Of a stretch of DNA of 64,000 nucleotides, positions 1,982 to 58,165 are shown piece by piece (the first letter of the stretch is position 1; every line of letters starts with the position of its first letter). Source of the DNA: Nitrosopumilus sp. GTDB lineage: Archaea; Thermoproteota; Nitrososphaeria; Nitrososphaerales; Nitrosopumilaceae. The notes beneath the pieces are model-generated. The model saw only the letters and a list, made by a program, of their open reading frames with translations, ran no database searches and had not been told where the DNA came from. The stretch lies in NCBI GenBank assembly GCA_965238275.1, contig OZ250186.1, positions 1,920,001 through 1,984,000 of the forward strand, given 5' to 3'. Both the position numbers and the translations under genes were made by a program.

Positions 1982-3335
1982 AACTCTGTTTCCTAATTAC
2001 GCTCGACACAGATACTCGTCTGTGCAATTCTGCCTACGTCGTCGTCTTGCCCCCTTCCCTTGCAGTCCTTGGGCCGGGCTTGTAGGCTTGCACGATCCTT
2101 GGCGTGCCGTACCCGTTGTCGATTGCAGTATCGATCATCTGGTTGTACAGCTGCACCTTTCCGTATATCTCGGCCTTGACGTTCTCCCACTTGCGCGCGC
2201 TTATGCACTCGCCCAACACCCGCTTGAACGTGGAAAATACAATCTCGACTGACCACCGGTCGTTGTACCCTGACTCCCTGCGCCACGCCTTCTGGAATTC
2301 CCTCTTTTGTTCGCGCGTGAGGCCTGCAAACTTGCGTTCTGCCGTCTTGTCCATGCAGTCCAGGTCCCCCAGCTGCCTGAATCCTGCCTCCTTGCGGGGC
2401 ATGCACCCGTTCGCCTTTCCGGCAAAGTCGATGCGGACGGGAATCAGCGGCTCGATTCCCTGCTCGTCGCAGTACCTGCGGATCTTCTGGGTGTCGTACG
2501 CGCCGTCGGCTGCCGCCTTGGTGCCTGCAGAAGTGTCTGAGTTTGGTGATTTTTTTGCATTTGCAAGGGCCTGCCCCACCAGTTCCTCAAACTGCGGAGA
2601 GTCCCCGCACTTGTCGTCGGTTATGGCCACGGCGTAGATCTTTTTGGTTTTGGCATCCACCCCGACGTGCAGCTTTATGAAGCCCCGCCTGGTCCCCCAC
2701 TTTTCTGTCATCCAGTCGCCGCGGTTTGTGGGCTTGAGTCCAGTGGAGTCGAAGGCAAACAGCTTGATCTCGGCCCGGGTGCCGCCGTCTGAGAACCACG
2801 CAGAAGCCGTGCCGCTACCATCATCATTGTCTGCAACAGTGCAGCCAAGCTTGGTCATCCTCTTCTGGAACGCCGAGTACGTGGGCGCGTTTTCCTTGCC
2901 GACTATCGTCTCTGCCAGACCCTGGAGCTGCCTGTACCTTATGCCGGTGGCGTTTTTGAACAGGGATGCTGCTGCAAAGCACGCGTTTGAAAATACGTAC
3001 GGGCGGCCTACCTTCCCGCAGTTTAGCTTCTCGACTCCCTGAGTCAGGATCTCCGGGCTTATCTGGAGCGTCCACAACTGGCCGCGGTCTATGTACCTGC
3101 GGTCATCGTACTGGAACCGGCGTTCTTTGGATTTGAAAGATTTTTTAGCCTCATGCGTGCCCGTTTTGTCTGGAGAGGATGTGTTTTCAGTCATGGCTGT
3201 TACCTGACTGCCTGCACACCTCTCTGATCAATACGGTTTTCTATTGAAGATGTTTGATATGATGTTCAAATTCAACTGATCTGGCCTAATTCTGAACCTG
3301 TTGGGTGTGACTGGCGATAATTAGGAAACAAAGTT
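1982..3335 (-). mobile_element. IS5-family (IS903-like) insertion sequence, copy A, 1354 bp
   Basis: 18-bp TIR AACT(C/T)TGTTTCCTAATTA; 8-bp TSD CATAGTAC at 1974-1981 and 3336-3343; near-identical to 26520..27873. Confidence 0.95.
2034..3194 (-). CDS. IS5-family DDE transposase
   Basis: FDSTGLK, KLHVGVD, ADGAYD, RWSVEIVFSTFK motifs. Confidence 0.93.
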   Translation of the reverse strand: MTENTSSPDKTGTHEAKKSFKSKERRFQYDDRRYIDRGQLWTLQISPEILTQGVEKLNCGKVGRPYVFSNACFAAASLFKNATGIRYRQLQGLAETIVGKENAPTYSAFQKRMTKLGCTVADNDDGSGTASAWFSDGGTRAEIKLFAFDSTGLKPTNRGDWMTEKWGTRRGFIKLHVGVDAKTKKIYAVAITDDKCGDSPQFEELVGQALANAKKSPNSDTSAGTKAAADGAYDTQKIRRYCDEQGIEPLIPVRIDFAGKANGCMPRKEAGFRQLGDLDCMDKTAERKFAGLTREQKREFQKAWRRESGYNDRWSVEIVFSTFKRVLGECISARKWENVKAEIYGKVQLYNQMIDTAIDNGYGTPRIVQAYKPGPRTAREGGKTTT

Positions 3336-3353
3336 CATAGTACGAGGTTGGTG

Positions 3354-3500
3354 AATACATGATAACCCCACCCACCCACCACATGTGGCGGGCTGACCCC
3401 TGATTACGCATGGTCACAAAGACCTCGTTGGTGAATGGGGCTATCCGAGCTGCTGTGTTACTGGACTCCGAGTCCTGATAGATGTATGCAGCTACCGGCC
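3354..3500 (+). ncRNA. putative bridge RNA (target- and donor-binding internal loops) of the IS110 element
   Basis: Loop 1: CCCC/GGGG outer stem, GGTC-ACAAA-GACC inner hairpin, strands ATTACGCA and GTTGGTG match the flanks. Loop 2: AGCTGC/GCAGCT outer stem, GGACT/AGTCC hairpin, ATAGATG matches donor end. Conserved second copy at 54617. Confidence 0.8.
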
Positions 3501-3520
3501 TGTCACACAAAAAAAGGGAG

Positions 3521-4597
3521 GTGAAAGAAATAGAAAAGAGTATTGGAATCGACATAGGAAAGAGAAAGTGCGTAGTGTGTATAATGAAACACAAGGGGAC
3601 AATTCTCGAAGAGTCATCGTACGACAACACGTCCCGGGATGCATTGGATTTTGCAGAATACGTAAAGGCCACATACGGCCAGTGCAAGGCAGTCTGCGAA
3701 TCCACCGGAAACCACTGGATAAAGACTGCAGACGCCTTTGAATCTGTCGGAGTCCCGCTGACTCTTGCCAATCCGTTCAAGGTCAAGGCAATCGCATGGG
3801 CCAAAATAAAAAACGACACCATAGACGCAAGAACGCTTGCCCACCTGCTGCGGGCCGACCTGGTTCCAGGCTGCCACATAGGTTCGGCCGAATCCCGGGG
3901 AATTAAGCAGGTCCTCAGGTACCAGATGACCCTAGTGCAGAACCGAACAAAAGTGATCAACTTTATGCACACGCTGACAGACAAATACGACATAAATCCA
4001 AAGAATGCAGGAGCCAGCGTCTGGAGACCAAAGGTCCTAAAGTACCTTGAAGAGGCAGACATGAAGAATTCCAGGGACAGGTTTGTTCTGGACGGCTGCA
4101 TATCGCAGATACGGTACTACAACGACGAGATAAAAAAGACCGAAGACGAGATCAAGCGCTACGTCCGAGACGCCCACGCCCCGAAGATACTGCTGAGTAT
4201 GACGGGGATGAACGTGTTTTCTGCGGCGCTGCTGGCAGCAGAGATCGACACTATCGAAAGGTTTGAGAACCCAAAAAAACTCGTATCCTGGGCAGGCATG
4301 TGCCCGACGCTTCACCAGTCAGGCGACACGTCATACCACGGCAGGATGAAAAAGGACTCGAATCGGAAGGTCAACTGGATCATGATCCAGTGCGCGCTTG
4401 TGGCAGTGTTCCATGACGCAAGGATGAAGGAATACTACACGCGCCTCCTGAAGAGGCACAAGCACCACATCGCCATAACGCACGTCGCAAACAAGATGCT
4501 GACGATCATCTGGCACATGCTGACAGAAGGCAACCTGTACGAGGACAGAAACGAGAAACTGTACCGCGCCAAGATCAAAGAAGTCATGAAGGCGTAG
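3521..4597 (+). CDS. IS110-family (DEDD) recombinase/transposase
   Basis: GIDIGK, VCESTG, KNDTIDARTLA and SWAGMCPTLHQSG motifs; the ORF-track ATG 3482 lies inside the RNA, so GTG 3521 (or ATA 3530 after GGAGGTGA) is a more plausible start. Confidence 0.93.
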   Translation: MKEIEKSIGIDIGKRKCVVCIMKHKGTILEESSYDNTSRDALDFAEYVKATYGQCKAVCESTGNHWIKTADAFESVGVPLTLANPFKVKAIAWAKIKNDTIDARTLAHLLRADLVPGCHIGSAESRGIKQVLRYQMTLVQNRTKVINFMHTLTDKYDINPKNAGASVWRPKVLKYLEEADMKNSRDRFVLDGCISQIRYYNDEIKKTEDEIKRYVRDAHAPKILLSMTGMNVFSAALLAAEIDTIERFENPKKLVSWAGMCPTLHQSGDTSYHGRMKKDSNRKVNWIMIQCALVAVFHDARMKEYYTRLLKRHKHHIAITHVANKMLTIIWHMLTEGNLYEDRNEKLYRAKIKEVMKA

Positions 4598-4978
4598 ACG
4601 CAGAACCGGCAATGTCAGTAGACGATGATGCCGGATCTAGCGGATGCTGTGCACGAATCATGGGAATGGCGGGTGTTTTTACATGAATACGGGGTGTTTT
4701 TACATGAATGCTGGGGGGCCAGCCCCCCAGACCCCCCGAAGGAGGATTATGCATGTCACGCCGCGGGGCAAAAGCCACATTTTCTGCGGATCCGGCAGGA
4801 TTCTACTCGCAGGTAACGCTTAAGAAGGCAAAAAACATACCCAAGGTGACAAGTTGGACGCAAAACCTGGATAAGTCCGGGGATGGGTTAACATAGATGC
4901 GTAATTCCGATATGTCCTAATCTGAATATTTCCCGCCGCATTCTCACGGGCGGGGTCAGATACGGACGGGTTGGATCA

Positions 4979-5620
4979 TCAGGCGCACTCCGTGCAAACC
5001 GGGCCGCCGTAGGACGGTATCGGTATATTTAGCCGGCAGGCACACTCAAACCGGTTGAGGACCCGGATGTTCCATGAGATTGCTCGTCCCTTGGCAAACC
5101 GGCGCCGATTGTCTTCGCGCACGAACCTGCAGTGAAGCTGGTGCCGCCGGCTCTCCTCGGCCCCGAATATGCCTTCCACCAGGGCTCTTGTCTTGTACTC
5201 GTGCGAGTCAAACAGCCCGGCTGCCTTCTTCCTGCTTGGCTTGCCCCTGCTGACGGCGTCCTTTCTCTGCTTGATGTTGGGCGTCATGCCCATCCAGAAC
5301 AGATCCTTGAAGTTGTAGTCGGCGTCATACCCGCGGTCCGCATCAAAGACGTTCCCCGAAAAGTCAAACCCGCGGCGTCTGATCTCTGCCAGCATGACTG
5401 GCAGCATCGTGACGTCGTTGACGTTACCCGGCGTGGCAAACGTGACCAGCACAATCTGTAGTCCCAGGATGGCCGTTATGTGGTATTTCCAGTAGGTTTT
5501 TTGACGCATCTCGACGAAATTACGCTCCTTTTTGTAGGGTTTTTCGATGTCTTCGTACCTGGTAGTCTCCACCCCGCTGCTGTCTGCGGCCAGCGGCCCG
5601 TCCAGAAACCGGACATGAAT
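4979..5620 (-). pseudogene. 5'-truncated IS5/IS4-like DDE transposase
   Basis: ADSSG, DADRGYD, YKTRALVEGIFG motifs; N-terminus replaced by an IS630 remnant; probable distal end AGACCTTATGCATAGT at 1964. Confidence 0.75.
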
Positions 5621-5645
5621 CCTGAGATCAATGAATTTGGAGCAT

Positions 5646-5895
5646 CGTGCATGGCACAAGCTGTCTGCGTGCGTATCCGTCGTGGTTTGGTGCCTTCTCA
5701 GATGACCAGATACGGAAAATTCTCGACTACCAGATTCGGTTTTTTGTACCTCGTGTACCTGGTAATCGCCTCTCGGAGCATGCGCAGGCTGGTGTACGGC
5801 ACGTCAAGCACTGCCCGCTTGAGATCCCCCGGTACGTCTCTATGGCGCTCAGGTTCGGGGTTGCAGTTAGCAAGAAGACTGTCTCCGGGCCGTCT
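5646..5895 (-). pseudogene. IS630-family 3' remnant
   Basis: DNA similar to 37711..37960 (CCAGATTCGGTTTTTTGTACCTCGTGTACCTGG). Confidence 0.8.
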
Positions 5896-14556: not shown

Positions 14557-15337
14557 CTAGGGTTTGGCAGCCTGTTCCTCATTCAATGGGATGATCTTGT
14601 ACGGCTTGATCCATGGAATATCGGGGTTGTTGGTGTATGCAAGCCAGGGCAGGTACTTCAAGCATATCTCCCGTTCTTTTTCCGTCAATTTGAAGAACTT
14701 GCCGCCTATCCGGCGCGGGGTCTCGGTCTCGTAATAGACAGAGCCCATGTTTATCAAGTCCTTTCTGTCAAAATAATGTTGAAGTTTAAACAATGTAATG
14801 ACAAGATCTTCTGTAATCATTTCCTCCGATAGTGTGCAGAGGATGCTGGTGCAATAATGACCATTTTTTGTCTCCCCTTGGAAAAGATCTAATGTTGCAA
14901 GTTTAAACAATGTAAGTGCCACTACCACTACCTGGATCATTTCCTCCGATACCGCTGGATATCCATAACAAAATGTCATTTCGCCCTGTGGGATCACTAC
15001 TCCCTCACAATCGGGATTGAGTTCCTTTTGGTTCGCTAGCATCTTTGGACCCAGGCCGTCGCGGAACTTGCGGAATGTGACGAAGACTTTCCTTTTTTTG
15101 TCATAATAACAATCATTCCAAATGTACTTGAGTGGGATATGGGCAGGGATTTTGGTAGATTTAACAACCGGCATCATTTCAGCATATTTTACATTTTGAC
15201 TGTAGTCTATCGCTAGACGTTGAAGAATCTCAAGTTCTTTTTTAGTCTCCTCGTTAAGTTGATCATTCTTTAGTTTTTCAATATCGTTCTGCAAATCCTC
15301 CAACTCCTTTTTATGAATACTAACCCTGTCCTTCCTA
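14557..15337 (-). pseudogene. paralog of 11042..12166, interrupted by TIR-flanked TnpB element
   Basis: RKDR...WNDCY...YETETPRRIGGKFF aligns to paralog; 5' part cut at TA 15336. Confidence 0.75.
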
Positions 15338-16783
15338 TAGCGGCGAGCGAAAGTTCGTGCAAACAGATCTCTCTGTAGCATGTCCTGATGCTCTTTCCGG
15401 CGCTCTGTCAGACCTTCCAATATTGTCGTCGTTGTCGGATCCAAGCCGACCTGTCGAATTGTTCATTCCAGAACTATCCGATCCGTGATCCTCGCGCCTT
15501 GTGACGACCTCGACACCTGCAATGGTGCCTCCACGATTCCCGTGGGCTTGGCCGCCAGTCTCCTCCGTATGGAGACAGTCATTATCCAAAATGTTTTTTG
15601 CCGCGTTCTTGTCGGCATGGTGGCACCATCCGCATGAGACGCAGACAAATGATTCGCCGTTCCTGGATTTCTTGTCCACTACCCCGCAGGCAGCGCATCT
15701 CTGGCTTGTATGTGCGTGTTCCACGCGTCTTGAAATTCCGCCTTTCTTTTTCATCTGCCATTCAAGCTGGATCCTGAACTCGCCCATTCTGGAATAGGCC
15801 ATCTCGCGGTTCAACCCCGTCTTTGAAGCCGCCCCGTTGGATCGCCTCATCTTGGTCAAATCCAGATCTTCCAAGAACAATACGGACAGTCCTTTTGTTA
15901 TCCGCCTGGCAATGTCGATCTCGTTGTGTTTTTGCCTGTTTGATATCTTTTTCAATTCATGCGTTACCTTGCGGCCGATCTCTTTCCATCTTCTGGAGCC
16001 TGCCTGGCATCTTGATCTAAGTGATTTCAGCTGATCAATCCTGTCGCCGTCATGCCTCTTGCAGCCTCCGGGGACATTGTGCAGTTTTTCGTTCCCATGC
16101 TCGTCTGCGACTGCCGCAAGGTGCCTGACTCCAAGATCCAGCCCTGCCTTGCATCCGCCGCCGCCACCACCGCCTGTCGCGGGTTCGGGGTCTGGGACTT
16201 CTATCTGCAAATGCAGTTTGAATTCGCGATCACCATCCTTGGTCTTACGCGTGACCTTGCCTGTGGTGTCAATCATCTGGAATGACACGAGCCTGCCTTC
16301 CGGAGCCTTCGTGCGTGGCCTTGCTTCCCAGAGTCCGGGCAGAAATACGGCTCCACTGTCTCGCAGTTTTGGCTTTCCGCGTGAATTCAGCGAGCGCAGC
16401 CTGGTTGTTTTCCTGCCGCGCCTCATCAGGCTGGACGGCTCGGTCCACCGATTGTGCTTGTACGTCTTCTTGTTCCCCAGCTTGATCTGCTTCTTGCGCC
16501 AGATGCGCTTGTTGTGCTTGAGCCGGTTTGCCTTGCGGAATTTGACTGCCGCCTGGAAAGCCTGTTTTGAGGCGGCCTCATGCATGTGGACGCTGCTGGC
16601 CAGGTTGAATTCCCTGCGCCATCCTGTTATCAGGTTGTTGACATCAAACTGTGTGATCCGTGAGTGTGCAAGTTTCATCATGATTGTCATGTCGTAAATG
16701 ATGTCTGTTTCCCGGGAGCATTTCACGATCTTGCGTGACAGTTCCCGAGATTGTGTTATCTTGATGATTTTACTGACAATCAT
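15335..16783 (-). CDS. tnpB: TnpB RNA-guided endonuclease
   Basis: GLDLG, FLEDL, HADKNAAKNI RuvC triad; TSQRCAACG...CVSCG zinc finger; stop codon formed by TSD plus flank. Confidence 0.9.
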   Translation of the reverse strand: MIVSKIIKITQSRELSRKIVKCSRETDIIYDMTIMMKLAHSRITQFDVNNLITGWRREFNLASSVHMHEAASKQAFQAAVKFRKANRLKHNKRIWRKKQIKLGNKKTYKHNRWTEPSSLMRRGRKTTRLRSLNSRGKPKLRDSGAVFLPGLWEARPRTKAPEGRLVSFQMIDTTGKVTRKTKDGDREFKLHLQIEVPDPEPATGGGGGGGCKAGLDLGVRHLAAVADEHGNEKLHNVPGGCKRHDGDRIDQLKSLRSRCQAGSRRWKEIGRKVTHELKKISNRQKHNEIDIARRITKGLSVLFLEDLDLTKMRRSNGAASKTGLNREMAYSRMGEFRIQLEWQMKKKGGISRRVEHAHTSQRCAACGVVDKKSRNGESFVCVSCGWCHHADKNAAKNILDNDCLHTEETGGQAHGNRGGTIAGVEVVTRREDHGSDSSGMNNSTGRLGSDNDDNIGRSDRAPERASGHATERSVCTNFRSPL

Positions 16784-16851
16784 ACCTGTAGTTGGGATTT
16801 ATTTTCTTAAAAAGGATCTCAAAAAATTGCACGAACTTTCGCTTTTCACTA
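15338..16851 (-). mobile_element. non-autonomous TIR element with TA duplication carrying only tnpB
   Basis: 25-bp TIRs TAGCGGCGAGCGAAAGTTCGTGCAA / TAGTGAAAAGCGAAAGTTCGTGCAA (21/25), flanked by TA at 15336-37 and 16852-53 (target CCTAGG). Confidence 0.88.
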
Positions 16852-17244
16852 TAGGATGCTGCCATACATCCCATGCATTTTTTGACACGTAATGCAGATA
16901 AGGGATCATGGACGTCGGGTGCGGGCTCCACGACAGCAACATGGAAGTCAAGGACTAGTGTCCTGCATGCGGTGCGTCTAAGACGGTACTGGTTCGTGTC
17001 CTGTTTGCCTGCAGCGATGGGCGGCCGTGGCAAAGTTGCCATTGGGCGGGAAAAATTTTTCCCATTCAATGGAAATCCGGGCAGCCGTGCAGAATTCGGC
17101 GTCATAAACTGCCGCCTGGCGTGCTGAAGGTGTATCTGGTGTGGATGCAAGGAATGCGTTGGCAACGGACAGAATCTCATAAAAGAAAGTTATAGCGCTC
17201 CCGCTATGCTGCTTAAATGCCGAGCGATTCTTGTCGGTGTGGGA

Positions 17245-54441: not shown

Positions 54442-54509
54442 GGGATGCAGTACGCGTTCAGCATAAAAGGAGTCGCATGAGCCAATCTATGACTTGGCCG
54501 TTCCTTGAA

Positions 54510-54594
54510 TGGGAAGGGCGGGATTTGAACCCGCGAACCCCTTGGAGAGAGAGGGGGGATCTTAAATTCCCCCGCATTTGGCCAGGCCGTGCTA
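54510..54594 (-). tRNA. 5'-truncated, degenerate tRNA-Leu(TAA)-like gene
   Basis: T-arm GCGGGTTCAAATCCCGC, 3' acceptor CCTTCCCA, anticodon loop TTTAAGA, long variable arm; 5' acceptor strand replaced by TIR inserted at TA. Confidence 0.6.
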
Positions 54595-54616
54595 TAGTGA
54601 AAAGTGAAAGTTCGTG
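54595..54616 (+). mobile_element. isolated TIR of the TnpB-carrying TIR element family
   Basis: TAGTGAAAAGTGAAAGTTCGTG, 21/22 identical to TIR at 16851..16830, preceded by TA. Confidence 0.85.
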
Positions 54617-54763
54617 AATACATGATAACCCTGCCCACCCACCACATGTGGCGGGCTGACCCCTACAATTGCATGGTCACAAAGACCTGGTTCGTGAATG
54701 GGGCTATCCGAGCTGCTGTGTTACTGGACTGCGAGTCCTGATAGATGCATGCAGCTGCCGGCC
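54617..54763 (+). ncRNA. orphan IS110 left end / bridge RNA with different target guides
   Basis: Scaffold nearly identical to 3354..3500; target-loop strands changed to AATTGCA and GTTCGTG; no transposase follows. Confidence 0.8.
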
Positions 54764-54829
54764 CCGCATAATGATTAAACCGCTCAGAATATAACAAAAA
54801 CCGGTGCAAGGTTGAAGTTTGAGGAACGG

Positions 54830-55651
54830 ATGTGGAGTGATCTGGATCCTGCCAAGAAATACGCCGTGATGGACACGATGGTGCTGCTTATGGCGTTCCG
54901 TTATTCCGGCTAGACGACAAGAGACATCAGGGACACACTGGACGGACGCGTAATACTCATGGTTCCGTGCATCATTCGCGAGGCGTTTAACGTGTACAAA
55001 GAGATGGGCATCAGGGAGGACATCCTGGATTTTGAAGCGTTCGTAAATGAGAAGATGTGGGCCAGGTTCGGCGCATTGGTGACGGTAGGTCCGAGCCATA
55101 AGACGCGCAATGCCGCGTCAAGGACCCACAAAGAACAAAAGTATTGCAACAAGGAAGGCGCGTGCCTTTCGTACGTGGACTGCCTGATGCTGCGCCTGGC
55201 AGTCGAGAACCTGAACGTGGACGTACTGACCGAAGACGCCACGCTAATACGGGCGATATGCGCAGAATGTGGGTTTCTTGGTCGTCCGAGAACTTGTCGT
55301 GCCCTGAGCAACTACTACAACAGGCGGTTCTACGTCTCCAACATGATCCATTGGCTGGCACGCGGCAATCCTTTCGTCAACATACAGGACGTGTTGTGGG
55401 ACACGGAATACGAGTTCGACGGCTCGTGGCGCGTGATCGTGTCTGAAACGCCCACGCTGAGCGTCAGAATGGAAAAGATTGGAGACACGCGTGCGCCTTG
55501 CCCGTTTGCAGACGAACGGGGGGCGCTTGACGCGATACTGGCGTGCTGGAGTGCCGAGTACGGCGACTACTGCCGCAGCCACCATTCAAGCGAGTTCATG
55601 GACACGTGCACGTGTGGAAGATACCCGTATGATGAAAATACGGATTCATGA
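54830..55651 (+). pseudogene. PIN-domain protein with in-frame TAG at 54911
   Basis: VMDT (before stop), IIRE, LSYVDC, LTED acidic motifs; Cys-rich tail. Confidence 0.65.
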
Positions 55652-55929: not shown

Positions 55930-56385
55930 ATGGACTTTTTCGAATGGTGGGATTCGGCCCCGTGCAGGCATGCCAACGCGGCATGCGGGCTGTACGGACA
56001 CAGCATAATATTCGGTTGCACCAACTGCCGCACACAGGCAACGTTCTCGCTCCATGACGACAAAACGGAATTTCACGTATCCATATCAGACGGCGGAAAA
56101 ACGAGATTCAACCACGTCGATATGGGCGATGCCGCACGGTTTGCCATGCGGATGGGCCGGATATTCATGCCCGAACAGGGCGCGGATCCGGAAAGCAGGA
56201 CATTTGAAAAAGACCGCGCAAGGCTTCGGGAACTGGTCGGGCTGCTTGACAGGCACGCGGATCTCACCGGCGGCGGCAAACTCATGCTGGTGGACGGCGC
56301 CGGGGCCACGCAAAAGTGCTCAAGATGCGGCGAGGCAGGATTCGAGGAGGCAGGGTGCCAGGCGTGCGGGTACATGGCGTCTTGA
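55930..56385 (+). CDS. hypothetical Zn-ribbon protein
   Basis: CTNC and CSRCG...CQACG motifs; TTTTATAAAA upstream. Confidence 0.6.
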   Translation: MDFFEWWDSAPCRHANAACGLYGHSIIFGCTNCRTQATFSLHDDKTEFHVSISDGGKTRFNHVDMGDAARFAMRMGRIFMPEQGADPESRTFEKDRARLRELVGLLDRHADLTGGGKLMLVDGAGATQKCSRCGEAGFEEAGCQACGYMAS

Positions 56386-57565: not shown

Positions 57566-58165
57566 ATGGCAGGCAAAAAATCCCAAACCATGCCGAGCCC
57601 GTGGCAGACCAAGCCCGTAATTAAAATAGAGAACGTGGTCGCTACCGCGTCCGTGGGCCAGACGATGGACCTGCGCGACATCCAAGAAAAATTTCCGGGC
57701 ACCGAGTACCACCCGGAACGGTTCCCAGGTTTGGTGTTCAGGCTCGCGGTGCCAAAGACTGCCACTCTGATATTCAGGACAGGCAAGATGGTGTGCACAG
57801 GTTCCAAGTCAAAAGAGATGGCAGCCGAGGCGGTAGACACCGTGGTGAAAAAACTCAGGAAGGGCGGCATCGACATACGAAACGACGCGACAGTCACGGT
57901 CCAAAACATCGTGGCCGCAATAAACCTGGGCGGAAGAATCCACCTTGAAAAGGCCGCAAGGACGCTGCCGCGCAGCATGTACGAGCCCGAGCAGTTCCCG
58001 GGTGTGATACACAGGGTCGTGGATCCAAAGACTGTCATACTGGTGTTTGCCTCAGGCAAGCTGGTGTGCGCCGGCGCCAAGAAAGAGGAGGACGTGTTCC
58101 GCTCCGTGCACAACCTGCACGCGCTTTTGGAAGAGAAGGGCCTAATGATCTACGAATCCATGTGA
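57566..58165 (+). CDS. tbp: TATA-box binding protein
   Basis: IENVVATA, YHPERFPGLVFR, LIFRTGKMVCTG; second repeat QNIVA, YEPEQFPG, FASGKLVCAG. Confidence 0.96.
   Translation: MAGKKSQTMPSPWQTKPVIKIENVVATASVGQTMDLRDIQEKFPGTEYHPERFPGLVFRLAVPKTATLIFRTGKMVCTGSKSKEMAAEAVDTVVKKLRKGGIDIRNDATVTVQNIVAAINLGGRIHLEKAARTLPRSMYEPEQFPGVIHRVVDPKTVILVFASGKLVCAGAKKEEDVFRSVHNLHALLEEKGLMIYESM

Follow-up and report, generated by a model that had tools for sequence, protein, structure and literature searches.

When a bridge RNA lies at a locus that has no recombinase gene, is it a working guide or the remains of an element? This question is raised by a short module found in the window, that is, the whole 64,000-nucleotide stretch of Nitrosopumilus sp. 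DNA that was analysed. The module (54617-54763, plus strand), which we call the orphan, corresponds to the left end of a truncated IS110-group element, as defined by alignment and consensus structure, and it stands in the terminal inverted repeat (TIR) of an element carrying tnpB. An intact sister, copy A, lies at 3354-4899 on the same strand. The original prediction took the orphan for a natural re-programming of the RNA of copy A, directed against the TnpB-carrying element and able to act in trans with the recombinase at 3521. Below we consider the RNA and its flanks, the relation between guides and insertion sites in the family, and the readings that these data permit. Whole-genome searches were carried out on the closed genome of 2,216,668 bp.

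The orphan module and its flanks

Alignment within the window bore out the reported near-copy: 54617-54763 aligns gap-free with 3354-3500 of copy A, with 13 mismatches over 147 nt (92% identity), the homology ends at 54763, and the loop strings that had been quoted are exact. Eight of the 13 differences fall in the target loop, which makes up 23 of the 147 positions (hypergeometric P = 8.5e-5): six in its 5′ strand, at 54665-54670, and two in its 3′ strand, at 54689 and 54693. The other five are at 54632, 54633, 54731, 54748 and 54757. The donor loop is that of copy A except at 54731, in the hairpin loop, and at 54748, the position after the core. Conserved stems and donor loop together with a changed target loop, as originally described, are therefore what the alignment contains.

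The consensus structure of 28 scaffolds obtained with RNAalifold has 27 base pairs, and compensatory changes are seen at 15 of these. A closing stem (columns 44-52/160-168) is accompanied by a first loop closed by CCCC/GGGG and a second one closed by AGCTGC/GCAGCT, each interrupted by a hairpin. The same two-loop layout is described for IS110-group bridge RNAs in the sections of PMC11208160 and PMC11208158 used here, and the scaffold can be identified, from its predicted structure, as a bridge RNA of this group. In the orphan, the 5′ strand of the target-binding loop (54664-54674, plus strand) is the reverse complement of ATG-CAATTGT, comprising the core and the right target half. The 3′ strand (54688-54699, plus strand) reads GGTTCG-TG-AAT and is made up of the left target half, the core and, in a handshake-like arrangement, the 3 nt with which the element starts. 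The donor-binding loop (54711-54756, plus strand) is closed by the stem 54711-54716/54751-54756 and consists of a 5′ strand (54717-54725), a hairpin (54726-54738) and a 3′ strand (54739-54750). This 3′ strand contains GATAGATG, the right-end terminus, followed by CAT, and the 5′ strand motif TGTGTT complements the left terminus AA(C/T)ACA, as read by eye.

All pairs of both loop stems and of the hairpins are kept in the orphan, and it deviates at one of 59 highly conserved columns, at which copy A deviates as well. The closing stem, mapped by hand from the alignment columns, pairs 54650-54658 with 54759-54767 (span 54650-54767, plus strand), and its four outer positions, 54764-54767, fall past the homology break at 54763/54764. 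As a result, the orphan keeps seven of the nine closing pairs, of which two are fortuitous and involve the new flank; copy A keeps all nine. Rfam gave no match in the window at the gathering score and none at E values up to 10 within 54550-54850. Single-sequence folds (z = -0.61 for copy A and -1.69 for the orphan) were not informative alone. The sole RNA run yielded one 184-nt contig of a relative, at 54838-55015 and with 16 differences, and no contig over the scaffold. Among metagenome contigs, which mix paralogues and other organisms, 19 of 24 variant rows of the scaffold fell in the two guide strands.

To the left, the orphan is bordered by the outer 24 bp of a left TIR, cut after GTTCGTG (54593-54616, plus strand). 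This flank equals 16830-16853 (minus strand), the left TIR of the TnpB-carrying element in the window, except for T instead of C at 54605, and so the proposed location within that TIR proved right. A Y-tolerant pattern of the 24-bp flank matched both copies with 0 mismatches against a shuffle expectation of 0.00, and about 20 TnpB elements of the genome begin on the left with this 24-mer. The last two bases of the TIR fragment, TG, are the recombination core; the core thus occupies TIR positions 23-24 and the insertion point follows position 24.

To the right, tblastn with the protein of 3482-4597 as query found no recombinase homologue near the orphan, including the 3 kb downstream, which are unique sequence. 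The 15-mer of the right end occurs in the genome at 288224, 1328179 and 1924885 and nowhere downstream of the orphan, so the absence of recombinase and right end on this side is confirmed. The right junction predicted for the orphan had 0 exact matches genome-wide and two unrelated ones at one mismatch, and neither the right junction nor the other half of the disrupted TnpB element was found in the genome.

The surroundings of the orphan contain other features. Its TIR fragment adjoins a partial, diverged copy of tRNA-Leu(UAA) without the 5′ end (54506-54592, minus strand, 84%), which may be an old integration site. The true tRNA-Leu(UAA) gene is at genome positions 1154610-1154699, and the TIR fragment begins where the true gene has TA. 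ARAGORN called no tRNA in the window, and a suppressor tRNA, considered on account of the tRNA-like anticodon loop, was rejected in favour of the partial copy. Downstream, the ORF 55930-56385 (plus strand) shows a sub-threshold match to the Cas12f1-like_TNB zinc ribbon (22.4 bits, cut-off 26.3). We did not accept it as a remnant of the lost TnpB, since tblastn with the TnpB of the window reached only E = 0.28 there. After this ORF comes a gene for TATA-binding protein (PF00352, 1.2e-55) at 57566-58165 (plus strand).

Guides and insertion sites in the element family

Copy A comprises a bridge-RNA module (3354 to about 3505), a recombinase ORF directly downstream of this structured RNA (3482/3521-4597) and the right end GGGTTAACATAGATG. 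Its recombinase carries the domains DEDD_Tnp_IS110 (9e-23) and Transposase_20 (1.8e-22), and the relatives of this protein are labelled Nitrosopumilus sp. The 3′ strand of its target loop, GTTGG-TG-AAT, combines the left flank with the TG core and the three bases that open the element, and the right junction, ATG-CGTAAT, is complementary to the 5′ strand. TG alone is common to the two junctions (GGTTGG-TG on the left; GA-TG followed by CGTAAT on the right), and there is no further duplication. The empty site GGTTGGTGCGTAAT is found uninterrupted at the ends of an insertion sequence of about 1.16 kb encoding a DDE_Tnp_1 transposase (genome 387079 and 388243), copies of which are located at 387079/388243 and 760992/762155. 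Since GGTTGGTGCGTAAT is the terminus of this insertion sequence, copy A is inserted in its TIR. Copy A and two relatives in a sister genome (L058 and L059, see below) are placed after position 8 of that TIR. The TIR interrupted by copy A flanks it at window positions 3346-3353 and from 4900 onward, with a remnant transposase ORF at 4979-5659 (minus strand). A different DDE_Tnp_1 transposase gene (386 aa; 2034-3194, minus strand) lies directly upstream, so that insertion sequences are piled up at this end of the window.

The TnpB-carrying element of the window, whose left TIR the guides of the orphan match, occupies 15336-16853 (minus strand). It is about 1.5 kb long, tnpB is its only gene (OrfB_IS605 and Cas12f1-like_TNB), and about 20 full or partial copies of such elements are present in the genome. 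Their imperfect inverted ends, TATAGTGAAAAGCGAAAGTTCGTGCAATT on the left and TATAGCGGCGAGCGAAAGTTCGTGCAAAC on the right, always start with TA. A 1362-bp element at genome positions 1872987-1874348 has ends similar to these and encodes an IS630-type DDE_3/HTH transposase. At the locus L083, no inverted repeats were detected at seed 9, and a looser scan gave an imperfect TIR of 17/24. On the basis of the similar ends and the TA starts, the TnpB elements look like IS630-type derivatives, in which TnpB appears to ride in non-autonomous IS630-like elements. An association of TnpB with IS630, surrounded by TIRs, is reported in the portion of a 2026 review (PMC13565253) that deals with it.

The orphan guides specify GTTCG-TG-CAATT(GT), through the strands GGTTCG-TG and TG-CAATTGT, and the TIR reads AAGTTCG-TG-CAATTTT; the guides thus fit, as had been proposed, the left TIR of the very type of element in which the orphan sits. 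The exact empty 12-bp site announced for the TnpB element is also there, as GTTCGTGCAATT, uninterrupted at 16825-16836 (minus strand). Genome-wide, GTTCGTGCAATT has 14 exact occurrences, all in left ends of TnpB elements: 11 in intact TIRs, two in TIRs interrupted 6 bp upstream and one in an aberrant end. None of the 14 sites is an occupied target.

Seven left-TIR copies depart from the consensus 24-mer, and five of these differ within GTTCGTG (GTCCGTG twice, GTTCATG twice, GTTCGTA once), a set that is too small, and made up of copies too closely related in part, for any conclusion. In addition, a 15-19-bp piece of the IS110 right terminus lies reversed at genome positions 1328179-1328193, between the promoter region and the ATG of the tnpB of another element, and resembles what an insertion at another site would leave behind once deleted.

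The agreement between guides and flanks extends to the whole family. The scaffold is present in 17 of 101 sampled family genomes, a tally that includes this genome and the unpublished G077. Forty-five scaffolds were collected, 43 of them with a recognisable left boundary, giving 31 distinct pairs of flank and guide. Across these pairs, the 3′ guide matches the five bases of the left flank before the core at 126 of 155 positions, compared with a cross-pair mean of 1.69 out of 5, and no permutation among 10,000 reached 126 (largest value, 82). Kinship among copies inflates this test, but the pairs span several genera of Nitrosopumilaceae. The covariation of guide and flank over the collected copies, proposed as a check of the original prediction, therefore holds. 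For elements whose right end was found, the right flank matches the 5′ guide at five to seven of seven positions in most cases, as read by eye, and poorly in three or four elements (L015, L016, L027). In 20 of the 45 scaffolds, the 7-mer of the donor-loop 3′ strand reappears at a GGTTAAC-like terminus located 0.6-3.5 kb downstream, many loci having ended before the expected right end. Two truncated scaffolds in the genome (1090160-1090278 and 1092042-1092160) have identical left flanks and form a tandem duplication with a spacing of 1882 bp; unlike most copies, they have a 3′ guide that fits the flank poorly (2/5).

The left TIR of the TnpB elements is also the target of a second, distant IS110-family element. 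It is inserted there twice, 6 bp upstream of the site of the orphan, after TIR position 18 and with an AG core. One copy is at genome positions 827315-828604 and the other, about 320 bp longer, around 2148252-2149860 (minus strand). Its recombinase is 27-34% identical to that of copy A and is frameshifted, DEDD_Tnp_IS110 and Transposase_20 being on two overlapping frames. The RNA at its left end contains ACACGAACTT and GCGAAAGA, which match the two halves of the AG-core site.

A sister genome, OZ244651.1 (G101; judging by its coordinates, G368 of the 401-genome sample is the same genome), provides further cases. Its scaffolds L061 and L064 have the left guide of the orphan, GTTCGTG, and are located in related TATA...AAAGTTCGTG ends, and their right guides, TGCATTT and TGTATTT, resemble the continuation of empty ends (TGCAAAT, TGGATTA). 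L064 is truncated in the donor loop and the recombinase of L061 is shortened. Out of seven TATA...AAAGTTCGTG ends fetched in G101, only one (L076) adjoins a TnpB homologue. L058 and L059, in the same genome, share the left flank of copy A (GAGGTTGGTG); on their right side, covered by L036 and L042, the flanking sequence runs on into the other TIR of the DDE_Tnp_1 insertion sequence. Given that copy A sits in the TIR of that insertion sequence and the second IS110 type twice in the TnpB-element TIR, targeting of TIRs by IS110-family elements is real and recurrent here, with ends of insertion sequences as habitual targets. The notion that these elements reside in the ends of other transposons is thus borne out by the orphan, by copy A and by the second element. 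IS110 left ends themselves also serve as insertion targets: two G101 scaffolds (L038 and L071) are interrupted at different points by an element beginning with TATACCAGCAA.

Origin and present state of the orphan

In G101, each guide variant is paired with its own recombinase, 74-95% identical to that of copy A, and the orphan has substitutions outside the guides in common with other lineages of that genome (CCCTGCCC). Taken together, these two facts argue that the orphan is a diverged sister element and not a re-programmed copy A. The natural re-programming of the 3354 copy has to be abandoned on these grounds, and the same pairing speaks against one recombinase served by interchangeable guides.

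Loss of the recombinase is common among these scaffolds. It is missing at four of the five scaffold copies in the genome; three others besides the orphan break inside the donor loop, and recombinase fragments are found elsewhere, at 287163-287951 and 1064223-1064432. Of 18 loci fetched from G101, five have a scaffold match without a recombinase within about 1.5 kb (L064 and L069-L072) and several others have truncated genes. A full-length element with the guides of the orphan was searched for in metagenome contigs, with 0 stretches containing the 20-mer of the 5′ target loop and 0 containing the 23-mer of the left junction. With at most one mismatch, the junction pattern of the orphan occurs in two of 401 family genomes, this one and G101, and in G101 both copies have also decayed.

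We read the orphan as a relic because decay of the scaffold is common, its closing stem is broken, neither an occupied target nor the right junction was found in the genome, and guide variants come with their own recombinases. Most probably, it is the 5′-terminal remnant of a decayed sister of copy A and is now inert. This account starts from what is seen at the locus, namely the identity of the scaffold, the architecture of the RNA, the match and covariation of guides and flanks, the TIR context and the missing recombinase and right end; from there we infer the order of events and the present inertness of the remnant. The parent element would have had its own DEDD recombinase and its own bridge RNA. 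Guided by the target loop of this RNA, the circle of the element would have entered the left TIR of an IS630-like element with tnpB, at the TG of TIR positions 23-24 and in a fixed orientation. A subsequent deletion or rearrangement would then have taken everything past 54763, including recombinase gene and right end as well as what remained of the TnpB element on that side.

Some features of the orphan weigh against a relic and favour instead a functioning free-standing guide that is loaded on the recombinase of 3521-4597 and brings the circle of copy A to the left TIRs of TnpB elements, or makes donor-like sites recombine with target sites there. The retained RNA is undamaged, with both loops complete, every loop stem and hairpin paired and a single deviation among the 59 conserved columns. 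Its donor loop fits the ends of copy A and should recognise them, and its change from T to C at 54748, the handshake-like position, gives, in a by-eye reading, Watson-Crick complementarity to the first base of the right half of the TIR target. Besides, 14 perfect 12-bp targets are at hand in the genome, and the parts of PMC11208160 and PMC11187229 considered here show experimentally that the RNA works in trans for other family members, IS621 and ISEc21, in E. coli. A promoter for its transcription would perhaps lie in the left terminus, which is conserved and AT-rich, some 25 nt before the closing stem. Against such a guide, all 14 targets are unoccupied and the right junction is absent from the genome, the outer part of the closing stem is lost, and scaffolds in these genomes are as a rule truncated, at arbitrary points. 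Moreover, the junction motif is confined, among the 401 family genomes, to this genome and the decayed copies of G101. We therefore consider a free-standing guide improbable. The action in trans and the arms race against the TnpB element that the original prediction envisaged found no backing in these data; use of the orphan RNA by the 3521 recombinase is mechanistically possible but unsupported. It is likewise improbable that a stand-alone bridge RNA has been retained, with its own left-end promoter, and gives the sole intact recombinase (3521-4597) a second specificity for the left TIRs of TnpB elements. On such a reading, one recombinase with a small guide repertoire would colonise or rearrange a rival family of mobile elements.

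Very unlikely is an orphan that forms the left end of an enlarged, cargo-carrying IS110 derivative, with a right end far downstream and mobilised in trans. A 2026 preprint, in the part that bears on this point, reports that IS110 elements can expand to a large size (10.64898/2026.08.14.744561), but none of the three right-end 15-mers given above lies downstream of the orphan, no right end adjoins the CAATTTT... remainder of the TIR anywhere in the genome, and the 3 kb that follow are unique and free of recombinase. Least credible of all is an assembly chimera joining an IS110 left-end repeat to unrelated sequence: the scaffold is multi-copy and its depth is inflated in metagenome contigs, but both junctions recur without any difference in contigs from three runs of two studies (54300-54663/54643, 54636-54723 and 54701-55300), although one of the runs may be the source sample, and the locus is thus not an assembly artefact.

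Understood as a relic, the orphan documents, as it stands, the decay of an element and a nested insertion. The locus is a clean natural example of target loops that diversify on a fixed scaffold and donor loop; in addition, IS110-family elements of ammonia-oxidising archaea land in the ends of other transposons, and the same TIR has been hit by two unrelated IS110 lineages, 6 bp apart. It also offers natural pairs of guide and target ready for testing an archaeal bridge recombinase. Should use in trans be demonstrated, the orphan would provide the first example from nature of a bridge recombinase that relies on a guide from beyond the element encoding it. The main texts of the full-text papers searched describe neither trans use of an orphan bridge RNA nor IS110 elements that target TIRs of TnpB or IS630 elements; the supplementary target tables of PMC11208160 and PMC11187229 may list such cases.

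Class membership and comparison with known systems

The features that define the IS110 group are distributed unequally between the two copies in the window. The covarying two-loop RNA at the left end, the target-loop strands that match and covary with the insertion site and the donor-loop strands that match the termini of the element itself are all present; for the orphan, the site is represented by the left junction only. The core dinucleotide at both junctions and a precise empty site are seen on copy A, and the orphan again contributes its left junction. A recombinase beside the RNA is found in copy A (3482-4597) and not in the orphan, which for this reason is a fragment of an IS110-group member and not a complete member. 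The RNA downstream of the recombinase and the long right end of the IS1111 group are not found here, the RNA of copy A being upstream of the gene. Recombinase domains, position of the RNA, loop architecture, guide covariation and core repeat all point to assignment of the element family to the IS110 group.

A fixed position and orientation within the TIR of another transposon is common to the orphan, copy A and the second IS110-family element. IS4321 and IS5075 reportedly target the TIRs of other transposons, and they resemble the elements studied here in using one fixed position and orientation inside such a TIR and in having many equivalent target copies. The elements described here differ from them in belonging to the IS110 group, with the RNA 5′ of the gene, in their archaeal host and in their targets, one being the TIR of a TnpB-carrying IS630-like element and the other that of a DDE_Tnp_1 insertion sequence.

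The orphan ssr9 copies of ISPpu9 in Pseudomonas putida, as presented in the relevant part of PMC12288879, are likewise pieces of an IS110-family element that code for a small RNA, stand unlinked to the transposase gene and may need the transposase in trans. According to the same part of that paper, Ssr9 is not a bridge RNA and its copies are flanked by both end boxes and MITE-like, whereas the orphan has the left end only. ISEc21 and its seekRNA, in the part of PMC11187229 used here, share the IS110 type, and formation of the circle and targeted insertion depend on a non-coding region upstream, supplied either in cis or in trans. The result for ISEc21 is experimental and comes from E. coli; the elements reported here are known from sequence alone.

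The closest parallel is with IS621 and the IS110 group as depicted in the consulted sections of PMC11208160 and PMC11208158. Common to both are a recombinase with DEDD and Transposase_20 domains; a non-coding RNA that precedes the gene in the left end; a pair of internal loops, of which one pairs with the target halves and the other with the ends of the element; a core dinucleotide at both junctions with no other duplication; and handshake-like positions after the core. The bridge RNA of IS621 is transcribed from a promoter at the circle junction and bound by the recombinase. The differences are the lack of an Rfam family match for the RNA analysed here, an orphan without recombinase, an archaeal host of the Nitrosopumilaceae, and a core of TG instead of the CT of IS621. 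Also, in both loops the strand that has the left-flank sense follows the hairpin on its 3′ side here and is 5′ of it in IS621 (LTG and LDG), so that the order looks mirrored in this comparison, which was made with IS621 only. What is new is the archaeal host, the TG core, the apparently mirrored strand order and the convergence of two IS110 lineages on the TIR of a TnpB-carrying IS630-like element.
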